Program-made: the position numbers and the translations under genes
In this document: positions 6,745 to 30,679 of the stretch, in pieces
How positions within the stretch are numbered: the first letter of the stretch is position 1
How the letters are laid out: the number at the start of each line of letters is the position of its first letter
Source: an uncultured virus (IMG/VR IMGVR_UViG_3300027917_000026)
Lineage: Duplodnaviria > Heunggongvirae > Uroviricota > Caudoviricetes
Strand: one strand, 5' to 3'
IMG/VR virus record: IMGVR_UViG_3300027917_000026
Length of the DNA: 34,837 nt
Notes under the pieces: model-generated
Told to the model about the DNA's origin: nothing
Seen by the model: only the letters and a program-made list of their open reading frames with translations
Database searches by the model: none

Positions 6745-7316
6745 AAAGCCATTGCCGCCTGATTAATTTCTTGTGCATACTCTTCCGGCGTTTTGTTTTG
6801 TTGGATTGCGTCTCGACCCCATTCATCTTTCTTCTTTCGTTCAAGGAACCATGCGGCGGCGTGCCATTGCGGTGCCAATGTAGAAACTGTTCTTTCAATT
6901 TCCATTCCTTTGATCCCTTGTTTAATTTTTGACTTCTTTATTTTATATCCGCCTTTACTACATTTTGTTATGACCTCAAGTGCATCATATTCCCTTTGTG
7001 CCTCAAGCGCAATTATCTTTTTTCTGAAGTGCTTATATTTTTTTAAGGTTTTGTCTTTTCCATAATCCATATATTGATTGAATGCTTCAACTGATATTCC
7101 GGCAAGTGCGCACGCGGTTTGACGTGAAAGACCCAAGGCAATTGCTCCATACAATATCTTTTTGCGGCGGCGGGTAAACTTGGATTTATTGCGATTTGTT
7201 TTTCTTTCGCTTCCTTTTCGGCGTTTTATTTTCCTACCAACATCAACGCGCCGTGTCATCCGCCCACGCCGTTCCTTATAGACTACTTTTTTTCGCCTCT
7301 TTATCTTGCGTGCCAT
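6705..7316 (-). CDS. terS: Terminase small subunit with basic N-terminal extension
   Basis: HTH-like AIALGLSRQTACALAGIS and WHAAAWFLER...WGR motif; directly upstream of terL. Confidence 0.8.
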   Translation of the reverse strand: MARKIKRRKKVVYKERRGRMTRRVDVGRKIKRRKGSERKTNRNKSKFTRRRKKILYGAIALGLSRQTACALAGISVEAFNQYMDYGKDKTLKKYKHFRKKIIALEAQREYDALEVITKCSKGGYKIKKSKIKQGIKGMEIERTVSTLAPQWHAAAWFLERKKKDEWGRDAIQQNKTPEEYAQEINQAAMALWNSVPTESEESN

Positions 7317-7408
7317 TATATATTGAGTTAAATTTAACAGGGGTGTTTTGTGTAGATATTGATAAGGTAATGTGTGACGTGACAAGCTAATAAGATATGA
7401 TGGCCTAT

Positions 7409-7437
7409 ATATTACTAAGTCATTTATATTCTGTCAA
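7409..7437 (-). promoter_or_regulatory. Sigma70-type promoter of the leftward packaging operon
   Basis: TTGACA-17 nt-TAATAT on the minus strand. Confidence 0.65.
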
Positions 7438-7599
7438 GCATTTTCTTTAAAAGTAGTCATTCCCGTGAAATTATTGGCCTTTTTTATATATAGTGGTTTG
7501 CAATTAGGAATCTTCTATATCTCAAATATAGTCAAATGGCCTGATATTGGGTATGGTGCCCGGTCATGGTTTAATATCTAAGGTTCTGATATTTATTGA

Positions 7600-8310
7600 A
7601 ATAGCCTACGGCAAACCCTTATAAATAGCGGCTTTAGAGGCCTACGGCAAACCCTTGTTAAATAACCTTCGTCAAATCCACGGTTCCCTAGGCTTTGCGG
7701 CGATTTTGATAGGGTGCGTGTGAGTCCACGATTGTAGGGCATTTGCGGAAGGTCTTTTTAGCCTGTATTTGGGGTACTGTAAAAACGGACACTTTTTTCG
7801 GATCTTCGGCAAACGCTTATGGTTGTAAGGCGGGTGAAAGCTTAAACGTAGCTGTATATCCGCATGGTTATTGGGTTTGGCGAAGTTTGGTCAAAATTGG
7901 ACTGTTTTTACGTTTTTTATGGTTTTGATGCAATATTTTTTAGATGCCTGCTGGCCGCGCATTTGCCGTAGGCGATTTTGCCTGTAAAACCCTATGGATT
8001 GCGGATCTATAAAATGATGCTACAAAGTGGTGTTTTTTAGCATTTTTTTTGCGTTTTTTTGCCGTAGAAACATATTGAAATCATTAGAGATCCTACAGGG
8101 GTTTTTGGGTCGCAGGAAACCCACGGTTTATGCGGATTTACACTTCTGGGATTGCACGTCTTTATTGGATATCCCGAAGGTCTGACAGGGTATTTTGATG
8201 GTCGCAGGAAACCTTAGAGAATAGCGGATTTATAGAAGGCCTTTGCAAAGCTAATATTGACGCTTATTGGCTCTTCGGCTATGTATTGATTTCAGTGGAT
8301 TTGCCGAAGC
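7600..8310. repeat. Field of short degenerate repeats (CCTWCGGCAAA; GGTCGCAGGAAACC; AAACCC-N-GCGGMTTT)
   Basis: GCCTACGGCAAACCCTT at 7604 and 7640; GGTCGCAGGAAACC at 8108 and 8200; inverted TTTGCCGWAG copies near 7962, 8058 and 8300; no credible ORF. Confidence 0.7.
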
Positions 8311-8362
8311 TGTTTCATATTTCTGAAATTGCCTGTATCCGCAAAACACCTGCAAATAGGCC

Positions 8363-8391
8363 TTGACCTTTACCCCAATAATGCCGATAAT
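8363..8391 (+). promoter_or_regulatory. Sigma70-type rightward (early) promoter
   Basis: TTGACC-17 nt-GATAAT. Confidence 0.55.
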
Positions 8392-8674
8392 GTATATAGC
8401 ACCACTGTTTCACGACCGACCGCCCTTGCAAATAGCAAGGGAATTCAACGGCTGAAAGCCATGCAAGGAATCGCGGATCTTTTTAGAATCCATACGGCAC
8501 TTGCAAGATTGAAACGACTTAGTTTGTCGGCGTGGTATCCCTTTGTAGTCAATCGGTGATTGAGATTAGGAATTGTTTATACTGGGGCAATTCTGAAATT
8601 GTTTAGCTACTGTTTCATATGTTTAGTTGACTTTACTTTAAATCAGAGATTGACAATATCAAAGGAACCGAATT

Positions 8675-9461
8675 TTTACCACGATTTGAAGAGTAACCGA
8701 TTGGTGAAAAAAATTGAGTGGATCGAAACAGTAATTGAAATCCGGCAATCACTACAGTGCCGATGTTACCATATAAGATCGATGCTAATTGGCAATAGCC
8801 GTATCAATGTAGTTGTCTATTTGAAACTATGTCGTTAGCTATTGTTTAAGACAGTGAAACTTGTCAGGGTGTGCCAATGACTAGTCCGTTTGGAATGTTC
8901 GAAGAGTAACCCAGCGTTAGGTGAAAAAAGACTTTCAAACACGGCGGCTAGTTAAGCAATATCCCTCTAATGCCTACGGCAACAATAGATTGGACGATGG
9001 TAATGATACTAACAAGAATAAGTCAACGGAGAGTAAAGCTCTAGAGATACCGTGGCTTGAAAGGGTTTGACTAAAGTATTGTTACAGGCCAGCCGAGAAT
9101 TAAGAGAATTGCCTACCTGTTTATCCGCAATAGTAAGACGCAACGCCAATAAGTCGCTGAAAAGAAAATGTAGGAATGTGGGCAAAGCTAATGGGAATCG
9201 CAAGATTTGAACCATGGCATTTATCGGACTTTGATGAAGTCGAGTAGTCAAATATGATATCTAAGCTATGATCCTTGACGTTTTGACCACCTTCGTGCAT
9301 CGGACTAAATAAGCGGGTTCGCAAGAAGAACTTTCCCTGAGTGGTGCTTAATCAGGGCTAACCATAAAATCCTCCTCCTATAAAAGTTATCATTCAAATG
9401 TGGTGGGGCTGATTCGAAGAGTAACAATTGTGAAAAAAGTTTCGGCCCCACCCGTTTGGAT
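8675..9461 (+). ncRNA. Candidate large structured ncRNA (about 800 nt)
   Basis: No ORF with an SD; many nested helices with G-U pairs; GCAA tetraloops; three copies of GAAGAGTAAC-N4-10-GTGAAAAAA, each at the tip of a helix. Confidence 0.65.
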
Positions 9462-9550
9462 ATCCTATGAGTCATGCATGGCTTCGGCAAATGCACGATT
9501 GATAAGGTATCCAAACAATACCTAATAACCCAAAAATAGGAGGTATTACA

Positions 9551-9856
9551 ATGACCATGCACCACATGACAGAACGTGCAATTCTGGATCGTTTGGATGA
9601 CTTCTCTTTCAAGATCGAATTGGTCAAAGATTTTTTTGAACTTGGCGAAGAAATGGATCTATCGCTTGACGATGCAAGCGCAATCGGGCGCGAGATTGAC
9701 AACCTTGTATTGAAGGCAAAGGCCAAACAATCCATGCACCGATGGAAAAAAGCGATGGATGACTTCAAAAAGATCCGCAAGTCGATTGACCTGTTGCGCG
9801 ATTCTTTGGAATCACTGCAAGATGACTTGAATGAAATTGAGGTCAAAAAAGCTTAG
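9551..9856 (+). CDS. Hypothetical early protein (coiled coil)
   Basis: SD AGGAGG; first gene of the rightward arm. Confidence 0.8.
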   Translation: MTMHHMTERAILDRLDDFSFKIELVKDFFELGEEMDLSLDDASAIGREIDNLVLKAKAKQSMHRWKKAMDDFKKIRKSIDLLRDSLESLQDDLNEIEVKKA

Positions 9857-9969
9857 GCTTTGAATTCTCATAGGTACAGTATAGGCCTTCCGCTATACTG
9901 TACCAATTGGGCATTCAAGGGAATGTCCTATTTGGGTTAAATAACTTCATTAAATAGGAGGATTAAAAA

Positions 9970-10209
9970 ATGGAAAGAATGACACGGTACGAAAAAGAAA
10001 TCGGTAGGAAAGTAACTGAAAAAATGCTTGACCATGAACTGGATCGGTTTGTTGACATGGATGAAGCAAAACTGTTGACGCGGCTGAAAAAGATCACTAC
10101 ACCGATTAAGCTTGAGGCTTTTCGCCAGATGGCTTTCATCACAAAAAATCGGAAACTTTACTTCGCCGCAAAAGACAAACTTGCCGATTTCGGTATTACC
10201 ATCAATTAA
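9970..10209 (+). CDS. Hypothetical early protein
   Basis: SD AGGAGG. Confidence 0.8.
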   Translation: MERMTRYEKEIGRKVTEKMLDHELDRFVDMDEAKLLTRLKKITTPIKLEAFRQMAFITKNRKLYFAAKDKLADFGITIN

Positions 10210-10303
10210 AGCGGCATACAACCCGCAATTGCTACATTGGATTGCGGGTTGAATTGTTGGTTTAATTATCAACGTGTCAAAAACAAAAATAGGAGGATTA
10301 ATT

Positions 10304-10522
10304 ATGATTATGGAAAAGCAATTCACGGTTGTTTGTCAACATTGCGGAAAAGTACTACTTGACAAAGGTACTGAAAAATTATCTCACGGTGATTGTCTTG
10401 AATATCACGGCAAACCATGTTCAGCCGGAATGGGATACTTCAAGCAATTGGCAAAAGATATGGAAATGGACTATAACGAAATGTTAGACAATTTCCGCAA
10501 ACGTCTTGACAATCGAAAGTAG
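10304..10522 (+). CDS. Small Zn-binding early protein
   Basis: CQHCG...SHGDC; SD AGGAGG. Confidence 0.75.
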   Translation: MIMEKQFTVVCQHCGKVLLDKGTEKLSHGDCLEYHGKPCSAGMGYFKQLAKDMEMDYNEMLDNFRKRLDNRK

Positions 10523-10626
10523 TCATTAAGCAATCATACAGCCAGCAAGCTTTTAACGAAGTTTGTTGGCTGAATTGAATGCTTAATATCAAGCATTCAT
10601 AAACCCATATTATAGGAGGATTTACC

Positions 10627-10809: not shown

Positions 10810-10930
10810 TAAGGGTTTGCCGGAGGTTAAGCATGTTGAGGTACAGCAAATGACTACATGTGTTTGCTGTACCAATTGGATGCTTAAATCCAGAAACAAA
10901 AAAATAACTCAAAATGGGAGGATTATAATC

Positions 10931-11317: not shown

Positions 11318-11533
11318 ATGATTAGATGCAAATGTGGTTTAACATTTCCGAATGCCTGTCATCATGCCGTTCACAAATGCCTTGAAGATGAAACCGATGA
11401 GCATACAACGGTTTGCTCAAGATGCGGCAAACACTTGACTTCGCCAATTTCATTAGATGAGGCGATCATTCAAATTGATGACAGCAAACATTTTATCGCA
11501 GTTATTTGCCTTGATTGCGTTAAAGAAATTTAA
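11318..11533 (+). CDS. Small Cys/His-rich Zn-finger protein
   Basis: CKCG...H..HKC...CSRCG...CLDC; SD AAGGAG. Confidence 0.7.
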   Translation: MIRCKCGLTFPNACHHAVHKCLEDETDEHTTVCSRCGKHLTSPISLDEAIIQIDDSKHFIAVICLDCVKEI

Positions 11534-11634
11534 GCAATCATAGAGCCAGCAATGGTGCGGTTTTGCCGTAGCTTGTTGGCTCAATTGGATGCTTAAATAC
11601 AGAAACAAATAACTTAAAAATAGGAGGATTTAAA

Positions 11635-12001: not shown

Positions 12002-12205
12002 ATGGCTGATCAAAAAAGATACAAATATATTATTTTCGCTTTTTCACATTACTACCCTATCGGCGGCATGAATGATATCAAAGGTTCAACCAATTCTTTG
12101 AGTGCCGCCATAAGTCACTTCAATGTGAACAAAGGTAAAGATGGCTGGGATCACTGTCAAATTGTTGAGCGCGATTCATGGCGTATTGTCTACGAATCAG
12201 AGTAA
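12002..12205 (+). CDS. Hypothetical phage protein (YYP.GG..D motif family)
   Basis: SD AAGGAG; FAFSHYYPIGGMND. Confidence 0.75.
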   Translation: MADQKRYKYIIFAFSHYYPIGGMNDIKGSTNSLSAAISHFNVNKGKDGWDHCQIVERDSWRIVYESE

Positions 12206-12303
12206 AATAGTTTAACTTCTGTAAAGCCGCTATTGACATGGCTTTACAGACGCTTGACTATTTTGGTCGAGAAAACAATAACTTCATACATAGGAGGATT
12301 GCT

Positions 12304-13001: not shown

Positions 13002-13105
13002 TAAAGCGGGTGAATATTCGATGCAACCCACAAATGACTACATGTGTTTGTGGGTTGGCTTGAATGTTTAGTCGAAACAATAACTTTAAAAATAGGAGGA
13101 TTATT

Positions 13106-13671: not shown

Positions 13672-13805
13672 AAGGGGGGTCAATATGGTCAACGGCTAGA
13701 AATAGTCCAACTTTTGCATTGCGGGTGATGGTAGTCATTTGCAATGCAAACGCTTGATTATTTCAGATCAAGGCAAACAATAACTTCAACATAGGAGGAT
13801 TTATT

Positions 13806-15876: not shown

Positions 15877-16128
15877 ATGCTAAAAGTACAGGATGGATCA
15901 ATCGGAAATATTATCTTCCATAACATCACGCGGTTGACGCATTTATCGCAATTGCAAAACTTTACTACCTTGATAATGGTTGAAAGTGACGGATTGCAAA
16001 TTGACTTGTGGTTGACAGGCAATGAGACAAAGGCAATTAAAGATCTGATAAAATATTATCAAAGGTATTATGATGTTCACTTGCGCGATATGGAAAAGAA
16101 AATTATCCGATTGGAAAAAGTAAAATAG
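15877..16128 (+). CDS. Hypothetical protein
   Basis: SD AGGGGG. Confidence 0.65.
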   Translation: MLKVQDGSIGNIIFHNITRLTHLSQLQNFTTLIMVESDGLQIDLWLTGNETKAIKDLIKYYQRYYDVHLRDMEKKIIRLEKVK

Positions 16129-16222
16129 TTTAACTTCTGGAAACACACGGTATTGACGTGTTTCCAGACGCTTGACTATTTTATGTCAGGAAAACAATAA
16201 CTTCAACATAGGAGGATTAATT

Positions 16223-28040: not shown

Positions 28041-28073
28041 TGGGTGCGGTGTAAAAGCCGCACCCATTTTTTT
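28041..28073 (+). terminator. Intrinsic terminator
   Basis: TGGGTGCGG/CCGCACCCA stem + T7. Confidence 0.85.
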
Positions 28074-28104
28074 GACTTACATTCCAAACAAATGGAGTAC
28101 TTCC

Positions 28105-29382
28105 ATGGCAAAGAAAAAACTCAATGTCTTACTTGTCGAACCCCCATACCGCGCCGTTCATCTACCATTCGGATTGCAAAAAATATCTACATATCATTTG
28201 AAACGTGGTGATAAAGTCACGTTTATCCATGACCATCCGAAGAACGTTTTCACGTTCAGCAAGAAACCGCATTTCCATAGGATCTATGTCACATCTGTTT
28301 TTACTTACAACGGCAAGATCGTTGTAAATACCGTGAAATATCTACAAAGACTTTTTCCTGATTCGCGTATTATGATCGGCGGAATATTCGCAACCCTTAT
28401 GCCTGACTATGTTGAGCAAGAAACAGGAATTACACCGTGGACTGGTTTATATCCAAAAGTTGAAGATCTCAAACCCGATTACTCTATATTCCCATTGGGT
28501 AAGCAAGCCTGTTGTATTACTTCCCGTGGGTGTGTACGGAATTGCGAGTTTTGCGCAGTATCAGATTTGGAGCCGGGTTTTTCTTTAGAAGTAAAATGGC
28601 GTGAACAAATACTTGCGGGTTATGAGGCGGGTTTGCGCCATCTGAATATACAAGATAACAACTACCTTGCAAACCCATATTCCCATCAAAAAGAGGTTAC
28701 AGAATTCCTACTAAAATTTCCTGATATGACCATTGACTTTAATCAAGCAATTGATTGCCGTTTGTTTACAGATAAAAAAGCAAAACTTATGGCAAAGCTT
28801 AAAATACCCGTATTGAGATTTGCATTCGATGGAATGCAATCTGATAAGTATTTCCAGAAGGCTTGTCGGCTTGCCAAAAAACTTAAAGTCGGAAAAGATA
28901 TTACTTCATACACTCTTTACAATTTTGATGATACGCCCGAAGACTTTTGGTATAGGTTAAATGAGATATTTAAAAGCGGCACAAATGCATTTCCGATGAA
29001 GTACGTTCCGCTTGACGCACTTGACAAGTCATTTATCGGAAAGCACTGGACGCGATCCATGCTGAAAAATTTTCAACAACTAATGCGCAAGTGGTCAACT
29101 ACTGGCGCAACCTTATCTCATAGGGGTCACAAGAAGTGGAAAAATCACCGTATTGGCAGAACAGCCGAAGAATTTGTTGAAATGCTGAATGCACCACGTA
29201 TCAGTAGTAAACACTTTGTTGACTTGCGCTCAAGTGACCGAGCAAGATCTACAGGGTTCGGCCTGACCGACAGATCCGAAATTGAGGATTCACTCGAAAG
29301 AAATGTAAAAATAGGAGTACTTGACAAAAAGGGCAAACGCAAAGGGCGGCGCACCATGGGTAGAAATATTAAATATAAGTGA
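28105..29382 (+). CDS. Radical SAM protein with cobalamin-binding-like N-domain, paralog 1
   Basis: LLVEPP..PFGL, TSVFTY, GGIFAT, TSRGCVRNCEFC, DNN. Confidence 0.9.
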   Translation: MAKKKLNVLLVEPPYRAVHLPFGLQKISTYHLKRGDKVTFIHDHPKNVFTFSKKPHFHRIYVTSVFTYNGKIVVNTVKYLQRLFPDSRIMIGGIFATLMPDYVEQETGITPWTGLYPKVEDLKPDYSIFPLGKQACCITSRGCVRNCEFCAVSDLEPGFSLEVKWREQILAGYEAGLRHLNIQDNNYLANPYSHQKEVTEFLLKFPDMTIDFNQAIDCRLFTDKKAKLMAKLKIPVLRFAFDGMQSDKYFQKACRLAKKLKVGKDITSYTLYNFDDTPEDFWYRLNEIFKSGTNAFPMKYVPLDALDKSFIGKHWTRSMLKNFQQLMRKWSTTGATLSHRGHKKWKNHRIGRTAEEFVEMLNAPRISSKHFVDLRSSDRARSTGFGLTDRSEIEDSLERNVKIGVLDKKGKRKGRRTMGRNIKYK

Positions 29383-29389
29383 GAATCAA

Positions 29390-30679
29390 ATGACGAAAAA
29401 AATTAAAAGAAGAAAACAGGACATTTTACTTGTCGAACCACCTTACAAAGTATCCAATCTAAATCTTGGTTTGCAGAAGATTGCCACCTATCATTTGAAA
29501 CGTGGCGACCGAGTTGACTTCATCCATGACCATCCAAAGCACTATTTCTCTATGATTCAGCCGAAGCACTATGATAAAATTTATGTAACATCCGTTTTTA
29601 CATATCATGGAAAAATAGTAGTTAATACCATCAAATATCTACAACGTATTTTTCCGAATACTGAAATCCTTGTGGGTGGCATATTTGCTACCATGATGAG
29701 TGATTATGTTAAAAAGAAAACTGGAATCAAGCCATGGATCGGTATTTATCCAAAAGCGGAATTTCAAAAGCCTGACTACACTCTTTTCCCAAAACCGCAC
29801 CATGGCACCGTAATGACTTCTCGCGGATGCCCACGCAAATGCGAGTTTTGCGCAGTCAAATCTTTGGAACCAAAATTTAGTATTGTCAAAAGTTGGAAAA
29901 AACATATTGATGCTGGATATGAAGTCGGTCTAAAAAATATCTGTATTGTCGATAATAACTTTACAGCATTGCCATGGAAACATCAAAATGAGGTTGGCGA
30001 TTATGTCAATGGCTACAAGGATCTTTGGATTTTCTTTGCTTCTCTGGATACCCGTATATTCAAGGAACGCAACGCGAAACTATTTAATAAGTTAAAAATT
30101 TCATATATCTTTTGGGCATTTGATAACATGGAAGAGGATGGCCCATTCCAACGCGCAATGGAGTTATGTCATAAATATGCCCTTGCAAAAAATTATCATT
30201 GCTACGTACTTTACAACTTTGAGGATACGCCGCAAGAATTTTGGTATAGATTAAATGAAGTAATTAAATCGGGTGCCACGGCATTGCCTATGAAATATGT
30301 ACCTTTGAACGCATTGACTAAAACCGAATATGTAGGAAAACACTGGAACAAGAAAATGCTCAAAGGATTTATGAATCTATTGCGCCGCACCACACAAACA
30401 GGTGCATCCTTAAGTCACAATGCTTACAAACACAATGCTATCGGGCGATCAGCAGAAGAGTTTATAGATTTGATAACCAAAGATTATGTAAGTACTTCCT
30501 ATTTCAGCCAACTAAGGCAATCAGATCGTGCTTTGAATACTGGATTTGGATTAACAGATCGTAAAGATGTGATACAATCAAAAGAGAAACACAAGAAACG
30601 CAAGAAAATGAAGCAATTGAAAAAGTTGCAATATAGAACGGCTGACAAAGTACTACCCGGACAAGCCAAAAACAAATAA
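29390..30679 (+). CDS. Radical SAM protein with cobalamin-binding-like N-domain, paralog 2
   Basis: LLVEPP..LGL, TSVFTY, GGIFAT, TSRGCPRKCEFC, DNNF. Confidence 0.9.
   Translation: MTKKIKRRKQDILLVEPPYKVSNLNLGLQKIATYHLKRGDRVDFIHDHPKHYFSMIQPKHYDKIYVTSVFTYHGKIVVNTIKYLQRIFPNTEILVGGIFATMMSDYVKKKTGIKPWIGIYPKAEFQKPDYTLFPKPHHGTVMTSRGCPRKCEFCAVKSLEPKFSIVKSWKKHIDAGYEVGLKNICIVDNNFTALPWKHQNEVGDYVNGYKDLWIFFASLDTRIFKERNAKLFNKLKISYIFWAFDNMEEDGPFQRAMELCHKYALAKNYHCYVLYNFEDTPQEFWYRLNEVIKSGATALPMKYVPLNALTKTEYVGKHWNKKMLKGFMNLLRRTTQTGASLSHNAYKHNAIGRSAEEFIDLITKDYVSTSYFSQLRQSDRALNTGFGLTDRKDVIQSKEKHKKRKKMKQLKKLQYRTADKVLPGQAKNK

Follow-up and report, generated by a model that had tools for sequence, protein, structure and literature searches.

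In a 34,837-nucleotide stretch of DNA from an uncultured virus of the Caudoviricetes (IMG/VR record IMGVR_UViG_3300027917_000026; hereafter the window), we found that a split repeat, GAAGAGTAAC-N{2,14}-GTGAAAAAA, occurs three times in a noncoding gap ahead of the early genes, and we proposed that its copies form an RNA structural module that serves as a candidate binding site in the early leader. Judging from sequence conservation and compensating changes, we put the probability of this reading at about 0.5. That the element works as a structural module at the level of RNA is likely, and its more specific role as a putative protein-binding site regulating the leader is held only tentatively.

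Three Copies of a Split Repeat in a Noncoding Gap

The split repeat matched at 8688–8712, 8901–8929, and 9416–9438, in every case on the + strand, with distances of 213 and 515 nt between copies and spacers of six (CGATTG), ten (CCAGCGTTAG), and four (AATT) nucleotides in copies 1, 2, and 3, respectively. A TTY prefix (TTT, TTC, and TTC) preceded all three copies. The triple module reported by the initial annotation at 8688, 8901, and 9416 is real, as the three matches were exact and none of 100 dinucleotide shuffles contained any match to the exact pattern. The 49.5-kb virus record that includes the window (G001) carried the repeat only these three times, and with a relaxed descriptor allowing up to 3 mismatches neither strand of the window yielded another credible copy. 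All three copies were confined to a 2.1-kb gap (7390–9550) without open reading frames (ORFs), which lies between the small terminase gene and the early and replication genes and is noncoding: no long ORF was found in it, either under translation table 11 or after reassignment of TAG, TGA, or TAA, its ORFs matched no PHROG family, and a search of a large protein collection with the spurious ORF spanning copy 3 found none on record.

The invariant part of the element consisted of two loop strands, 5'-UUY-GAAGAGUA and GAAAAAA-R-3', with a variable mini-hairpin of 2–3 bp, AC(C)-loop-(G)GU, between them and a lower stem closing outside. These strands delimited a purine-rich, 8-by-7 internal loop (5'-GAAGAGUA / 5'-GAAAAAA), both sides of which were left unpaired in nearest-neighbor folds. 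The pair closing the loop covaried, being U-A in copy 1 and C-G in copies 2 and 3 and in L301, a related contig described below; next to it stood, usually, U.U mismatches and then an ordinary stem.

For each module length, 1,500 random placements served as controls for the flank–flank energy of the copy. The flanks of copy 3 paired with −22.9 kcal/mol, a value reached by none of the 1,500 random placements, and its hairpin had a z-score of −5.8. For copy 2 the flank energy was −5.6 kcal/mol (a fraction of 0.037 of random placements was as good), and its hairpin was present in both the minimum free energy and the centroid structures of the 1,151-nt fold. In copy 1 the flank pairing comprised only the U-A closing pair and a 4-bp helix, CCAC/GUGG. 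Thus, the flanking helices, which had been described as different in sequence but all paired, do all pair, but unevenly, with copy 3 strong, copy 2 bulged, and copy 1 weak. In the same flank test the pairing was better on the + strand than on the − strand for all three copies, and the whole 1,151-nt region folded with −321.8 kcal/mol on the + strand versus −291.3 kcal/mol on the − strand. The hairpin of copy 3 did not appear to be an intrinsic terminator, in that a terminator scan of 7200–9700 returned no site at 9402–9460 and the tail reads CGUUUGG; in a relative from sequencing run X4, the tail after the stem reads as more U-rich.

Conservation and Covariation in a Related Contig

A search with the small terminase identified the contig L301 (G002) of a distant phage, whose TerS was 51% identical. 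It carried a single copy of the module, ahead of terS and on the strand opposite to that gene, in the same layout as in the window. This copy read ...GCAAUAAUC-GAAGAGUA-GG-GAAA-CU-GAAAAAA-GUUUAUUGC..., and both of its loop strands were identical to those of the window. Around these strands the sequence had changed: the first tip pair was A-U in the window and G.U in L301, the second C-G in the window and G-C in L301 (read by eye from the alignment), the tip loop of L301 was the GNRA tetraloop GAAA, the GTG of the window copies was CTG, and the lower stem was unrelated in sequence but still paired. In an alignment of the four hairpins, standard pairs filled 70% of the cells, a share that none of 500 shuffles attained (52% in shuffles), and 6 of the 10 pairs had changes on both sides, a count equaled in 2 of 500 shuffles; slid registers of the alignment were 20–55% paired. 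The initial annotation had named a DNA site independent of the flanking stems as the finding that would overturn its RNA interpretation, but the helices at the tip and below the loop differ between copies without losing their pairing, so that the element acts like a hairpin in which the internal loop is conserved, and not like a DNA site of fixed spacing.

The first early protein of the window was only 23% identical to its positional orthologue in L301 (E = 3e-4), and the letters of the loop were 100% conserved; considering also the other conserved leader elements, the RNA elements were therefore better kept than the adjacent protein. Because L301 has one copy only, three copies are not essential. 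In L301 a plain cUUCGg hairpin directly follows the CCUCCUCC box, at the place where the window has the copy 3 hairpin, and the module for this reason looks like a cap that may be present on or absent from a stem.

Likeness to the Sarcin–Ricin Motif

A stretch AGUA opposite GAA, with a Watson–Crick pair adjoining, is the sequence signature of the sarcin–ricin, or bulged-G, motif (PMC5737476; PMC13085918). This signature, recognized in the initial annotation as that of loop E, was borne out in all four instances, each of which has the form AGUA-(A-U or G.U pair)...(pair)-GAA and places its A.G end next to a pair. The internal loop was framed by helices on both sides, the first tip pair being A-U in three instances and G.U in one. 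Bulging of the G would allow the 8 and 7 nucleotides of the loop to be arranged, by our own derivation, as seven stacked noncanonical pairs; whether the loop would adopt the predicted sarcin–ricin-type fold we regard as an even question. PMC13085918 also mentions a "larger variant" group of sarcin–ricin motifs.

The sarcin–ricin loop (SRL) of the ribosome itself is defined, according to PMC2896532, by a universally conserved 12-nt stretch (2654–2665) with a GAGA tetraloop, which ribotoxins read together with the bulged G. The tip loops of our module, GAUU, CAGCGUUA, and AAUU in the window and GAAA in L301, were not conserved, and none was GAGA. Because the GAGA tetraloop is missing, an SRL mimic that sponges ribotoxins or translation GTPases, as had been suggested, is disfavored, and the tips also vary. 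The "three identical protein-binding tips" of the same suggestion were inexactly named: the tips are not identical, but the internal loop beneath them is. A multivalent protein platform would be plausible.

Organization of the Early Leader

The features that define the leader are collected in table 1. The promoter-like site at its left end would start a + strand RNA near 8398, and both its −10 element with the GCC prefix (GCCGATAAT) and the TTG of its −35 element were kept in L301. The conserved 5' domain that follows aligned to L301 2197–2034 (−) with an E value of 5e-10, and RNAalifold on these two sequences gave 19 pairs, 7 of which had changes on both sides and none of which was broken. 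Local folding z-scores were −3.4 for 8400–8519 and −9.3 for 9400–9519.

Table 1. Coordinates of the module copies and other leader features in the window.
Feature	Position	Strand	Description
Sigma-70-like promoter TTGACC-17-GATAAT	8363..8391	+	10/12 positions
Conserved 5' domain	8396..8525	+	Hairpins including CCCUUGC-AAAUA-GCAAGGG
Module copy 1	8679..8721	+	Lower stem CCAC/GUGG, U-A closing pair, tip ACC-GAUU-GGU
Copy 1 loop strands	8688..8695, 8706..8712	+	GAAGAGUA, GAAAAAA
Module copy 2	8880..8952	+	Long bulged lower stem, tip ACC-CAGCGUUA-GGU
Copy 2 loop strands	8901..8908, 8923..8929	+	GAAGAGUA, GAAAAAA
AAUCCUCCUCCUAUA box	9369..9383	+	Complementary to early-gene Shine–Dalgarno sequence AUAGGAGG
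Module copy 3	9402..9452	+	11-bp GC-rich stem GGUGGGGCUGA/UCGGCCCCACC, then U.U, U.U, C-G; tip AC-AAUU-GU
Copy 3 loop strands	9416..9423, 9432..9438	+	GAAGAGUA, GAAAAAA
Long imperfect hairpin with C-UUCG-G loop	9454..9516	+	26-nt arms, 81% complementary; just before first ribosome-binding site
Shine–Dalgarno sequence and start of first early gene	9535..9553	+	AUAGGAGG at 9535–9542, ATG at 9551; 101 aa

The window and L301 were colinear in blocks, comprising, in order, an identical 18-mer (7781–7798), a 69% identical block (8010–8091), the promoter region with the 5' domain (8354–8518), the module, a block ending in AAUCCUCCUCCUAUA (9327–9382), and the ribosome-binding site. The 18-mer, AAAAACGGACACTTTTTT, lies upstream of the leader promoter and is found at 2556–2539 (−) in L301; two other IMG/VR matches to it were both unrelated.

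All 15 nt of the AAUCCUCCUCCUAUA box were identical in L301, at about 1582–1568 (−). On the + strand CCTCCTCC occurred only in this box, and TAGGAGG stood at 13 early-gene starts. The duplex of the box with the first Shine–Dalgarno (SD) sequence had an energy of −12.7 kcal/mol, which 2 of 500 shuffles matched; the corresponding duplex in L301 was weaker (−9.7 kcal/mol, fraction 0.146). The box may be an anti-SD regulator, and this conserved neighborhood of the modules suggests a link to the control of early-gene expression. Weak, subthreshold Rfam matches to small RNAs of the ar14/SorY type in L301 covered the box and the GC hairpin after it.

Two-level hairpins were also seen between the small early genes, at 9860–9930, 10210–10260, 10520–10600, 10820–10890, and 11525–11600, one example being TTAAGCAATCA-[GAGCCAGCAA...TTGTTGGCTC]-AATTGGATGCTTAAAT. 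Each precedes the same AAATAGGAGGATT ribosome-binding site, their windows had z-scores of −3 to −5, and they may be sites of RNA processing or stabilization. Another hairpin family, AAAATAGTTTAACTTCTG-stem-loop-stem-CAGACGCTTGACTATTTT, was observed at 12204–12264, 13699–13764, and 16121–16183, with a weaker member at 13013–13068; its arms were 22–26 nt long and 82–85% complementary.

Distribution of the Module among Relatives and Databases

Contigs from two other sequencing studies (X3 and X4) aligned over the module-bearing blocks at 80–95%. The X3 relative aligned over 8222–8411, 8562–8793, 8935–9177, and 9290–9479, at roughly 82–91% by our own count of differences, and the X4 relative over 9290–9442 with 9 differences; the records involved were 1,240 nt and 3,183 nt long for X3 and 215 nt for X4. 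The promoter fell within the first of the X3 blocks (8222–8411), and copy 1 within the second (8562–8793); copy 3 was covered by the last X3 block (9290–9479) and overlapped by the X4 block (9290–9442). At copy 2, the alignment joint suggests that the X3 relative may have a 6-nt spacer and a different 3' flank. Two further matching runs, X1 and X2, probably stem from the sample that yielded the window and are not independent.

The gap had no blastn match among 50,697 phage records, the nearest named phage (MW202621.1, TerL 54% identical) had no large gap beside terS, and the IMG/VR relatives by TerL (52–58%) were without the gap. Similarity searches with the first early protein and the next protein gave no usable relatives, and an ESM Atlas search with the first early protein returned unnamed helical proteins only. 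Searched with the strict module, viral_contigs gave 1 match, within a coding region; metagenome_contigs gave at least 116 loci with one match each, none of them gap-related among the matches listed; and genome_contigs (596 Gb) gave 54 single matches, about the estimated chance number and none related. A relaxed pattern of the loop strands gave at least 118 loci in viral_contigs, none related among the matches listed, and tightening the pattern left 34 loci, with the L301 contig the only real one among them. Of 206 instances outside the clade, one passed the structural descriptor, and it was located in a 2,082-nt ORF. The pattern search of viral and bacterial genomes that the initial annotation had proposed as a check accordingly recovered a fourth copy, in L301, but outside the clade, among the matches listed, only single unrelated ones at about the level of chance.

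Known RNA families gave no match either. Rfam 15 had none in the window at the gathering threshold; with E values up to 10, region 7300–9700 matched only SAM-II (19 bits) and SNORD46 (15 bits), and the L301 leader only ar14 (17.5), SorY (15.8), and IMES-2 (12), all far below the cut-offs. Using cmscan, we found no match to ROOL, raiA, GOLLD, Dictyoglomi-1, T-box, or rRNA models, and scans for tRNA and tmRNA returned nothing relevant. In open-access papers on sarcin–ricin or loop E motifs in phages, leaders, and noncoding RNA (ncRNA), we found no comparable element. Two other candidates were rejected, namely a CRISPR-repeat mimic, as the genome loci had no arrayed matches, and, on paper, a K-turn, as tandem sheared G.A/A.G pairs beside a 3-nt bulge were not present in that register.

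Gene Neighborhood and Other Features of the Window

To the left of the gap, the − strand carries the portal, large terminase (terL), and small terminase (terS) genes, up to 7385. To the right, the + strand carries from 9551 a series of small early genes and, past them, genes for an AAA ATPase, helicases, a primase, two radical-SAM-like proteins, a sliding clamp, a clamp loader, and a DNA methylase. Immediately ahead of terS, at 7409–7437 (−), is a sigma-70-like promoter, TTGACA-17-TAATAT, matching at 10 of 12 positions; together with the rightward promoter-like site, the gap therefore has divergent promoters.

A second repeat, CTWCGGCAAA, had 31 matches with at most 1 mismatch, compared with 5 expected, in both orientations. 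It was crowded in the left half of the gap (7600–8310), occurred also at 9482, 11562, 14699, and 27039, and was absent from L301 and the other relatives examined. Because it is clustered in both orientations, it is probably a binding site at the DNA level, for an origin or a regulator.

Elsewhere in the window, a caspase-like peptidase C14 protein is encoded at 1823–2692 (−) amid packaging and structural genes (E = 2e-24), and two adjacent proteins at 28072–30679 (+) had weak matches to radical-SAM and B12-binding domains, below the Pfam cut-offs. At 10058–10092, a second contig in runs X1 and X2 matched 35 nt with a 5-nt deletion and unrelated flanks, which suggests that this stretch is common to another element in the same sample.

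Proposed Role of the Module and Alternative Explanations

We proposed that the three repeats would be the conserved core of an RNA hairpin module, in which a Y-R pair, mostly with neighboring U.U mismatches, closes the internal loop from below and a short variable hairpin caps it. The module would lie in a long untranslated + strand RNA running from the promoter-like site at 8363–8391 to 9551, about 1.15 kb. Its loop would most likely stack as extended sarcin–ricin (bulged-G, loop-E-type) noncanonical pairs and would be the recognition site of one trans-acting factor, most likely a phage or host protein. This factor could act on the leader, with its anti-SD box and the GC-rich hairpins upstream of the first ribosome-binding site, and thereby on expression of the early operon. 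The synthesis of the RNA, the three-dimensional fold of its loop, the binding of a protein, and any effect on expression are points that we infer.

Several observations weigh against this proposal. Regarding the RNA as a whole, none of the matching sequencing runs is on record as RNA, and transcription, RNA ends, and strand are deduced from the DNA; local z-scores were near 0 across 8500–9400; and hairpins with GNRA or UNCG loops were only mildly in excess on the + strand (6 versus 2), so that most of the leader does not look unusually structured thermodynamically. Because only 8400–8519 and 9400–9519 stand out and the excess of tetraloops is mild, the leader looks like a structured 5' domain with module hairpins and a structured 3' end, not like one large ornate RNA. 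Regarding the individual hairpins, the lower stem of copy 1 is weak (−3.1 kcal/mol, fraction 0.117, p about 0.12) and a competing fold of this copy is better by 1.2 kcal/mol, the stem of copy 2 requires a bulge, RNAfold prefers in L301 a UAG/CUG tip that intrudes on the motif, and of the four clade instances the strict descriptor passes copy 3 and L301 only. The covariation comes from four hairpins, three of which are paralogues, and from one two-sequence alignment. With its closing pairs the loop measures 10x9, larger than the 7x6, 6x5, and 7x7 groups given in PMC13085918. Finally, L301 has one copy and the window three, so multivalency is not conserved, and no RNA-binding protein was identified among the ORFs of the window.

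The module could instead be a building block for RNA–RNA tertiary or quaternary contacts in a large folded ncRNA that has no dedicated protein partner. Sarcin–ricin loops do occur in ROOL and raiA RNAs, and four in Dictyoglomi-1 RNA, as stated in PMC13085918; the leader is long (0.7–1.15 kb) and shows blockwise conservation, L301 has a GNRA tetraloop at its tip, and several GNRA-capped hairpins occur on the + strand. We nevertheless consider this explanation rather unlikely, since local z-scores are near 0 across most of the region, a fixed architecture would hardly be expected to have three copies in one relative and one in another, the tips show no conservation, and neither ROOL, raiA, GOLLD, Dictyoglomi-1, nor any other Rfam family matched.

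A second alternative dispenses with the loop-E fold. A-R-N and A-tract motifs bind Hfq, and the two purine strands, which read as three consecutive A-R-N triplets (AAG-AGU-AAC) and an A6 run, might remain single-stranded within a hairpin bubble as a landing pad for Hfq (distal face) or ribosomal protein S1. Both strands are indeed unpaired in nearest-neighbor folds, and the leader adjoins an anti-SD box and a ribosome-binding site, where such factors act. The exact letters, however, are kept beyond what A-R-N triplets need, with G and U at fixed places and AGUA exactly opposite GAA beside a Watson–Crick pair. We judge this pad to be distinctly unlikely.

A bolder version of the proposed module is that this small clade of sediment phages might carry a portable, extended sarcin–ricin-type cap, graftable from stem to stem and present in the early leader in one to three copies, as a multivalent docking site or decoy for a host factor whose normal targets are bulged-G loops, such as a ribosome-associated or defense protein, and that capture of this factor would be coupled through the anti-SD box to switching on the early operon. 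We regard this combination as doubtful and advance it as speculation.

A role at the level of DNA, whether double-stranded or in extruded or single-stranded hairpins, as a replication origin, a loading site for primase or helicase, a terminase site, or an unusual promoter, would suit the position of the gap between divergent gene blocks, next to terS and at the minimum of the cumulative GC skew, its many repeats in both orientations (e.g., CTWCGGCAAA), and the primase, helicase, clamp, and clamp loader that the phage encodes for itself. Yet all four known copies have one orientation, that of early transcription, and the spacer, ranging from 4 to 10 nt, is always a mini-hairpin with compensating pairs. 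The G.U pairs of the stems would become A.C on the other strand, and the − strand energies are worse. At 213 and 515 nt, the distances between copies are unlike those of iterons, and the modules follow a conserved promoter-like site, in a region with RNA-type covariation; a DNA site is thus improbable.

Still less probable, to the point of being barely tenable, is a decoy of the SRL for ribotoxins, SRL-cleaving toxins, or translational GTPases: the AGUA/GAA signature followed by a short helix and a loop reproduces the topology of helix 95, and multiple copies would suit a sponge, but the GAGA tetraloop, one of the two areas recognized by toxins, is absent, and the GAAG/AAAA extension has no counterpart in the SRL as PMC2896532 describes it; the tip loops differ in every copy, and models of large-subunit rRNA gave no match. 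We gave almost no weight to the possibility that the repeats are starts of small genes (a weak GAAGAG SD sequence, a spacer, and GTG-AAA-AAA for Met-Lys-Lys), because, although the GTG opens an ORF of 31–49 codons in each window copy, it is CTG in L301, the three peptides are unrelated and match no family, the real early genes all use TAGGAGG and ATG, and in the protein collection no ORF has been called that spans copy 3.

Comparison with Known Systems

If the RNA module in the early leader is real, it would represent a new phage RNA family, an early leader of 0.7–1.15 kb with an internal-loop module that is variable in copy number and invariant in sequence, and it would add a natural and unusually long variant to the catalogue of sarcin–ricin-type loops. 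Loop letters that stay invariant beside a protein of 23% identity would mark a specific recognition element, and discovery of its partner could show how the timing of early genes is set in these phages or how they make use of a host factor. The element has no bearing on a long-standing open question; it is a candidate for a new family of phage leader RNAs built on a known type of three-dimensional motif, being long, letter-invariant, and variable in copy number.

With the sarcin–ricin motif in general, which occurs in helix 95 of 23S rRNA and in numerous other structured RNAs, the module shares the AGUA/GAA signature, the Watson–Crick pair after AGUA and before GAA, and the helices on both sides. 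It differs in its longer loop, which has four more purine–purine positions (GAAG opposite AAAA) and usually U.U, and in its upper helix of only 2–3 bp; the likeness is one of sequence. The SRL of 23S rRNA likewise has the bulged-G signature and then a short helix with a terminal loop, but the module has neither the GAGA tetraloop nor the conserved 12-nt stretch given in PMC2896532, and its terminal loops are variable. Also near are ncRNAs of unknown function with conserved sarcin–ricin loops: such loops are contained in ROOL (RF03087) and raiA (RF03072) RNAs, and four of them in Dictyoglomi-1 RNA (RF01703), according to PMC13085918, the last of these RNAs being listed as a candidate ncRNA (PMC2864571). 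The present module differs from these in lying in a phage leader before the early genes, in having letter-identical copies, and in varying in number (three versus one).

The working principle that we proposed is that of leader hairpins read by proteins. Phage nut and put sites, RAT hairpins of the BglG/LicT type, and the operators of ribosomal proteins are hairpins with conserved unpaired nucleotides and free stems, which are found, at times in several copies, in the stretch from a promoter to the first gene and control read-through or translation. The module may share this principle with them, but not membership in any of these classes, and the phage leader that bears it is far longer.

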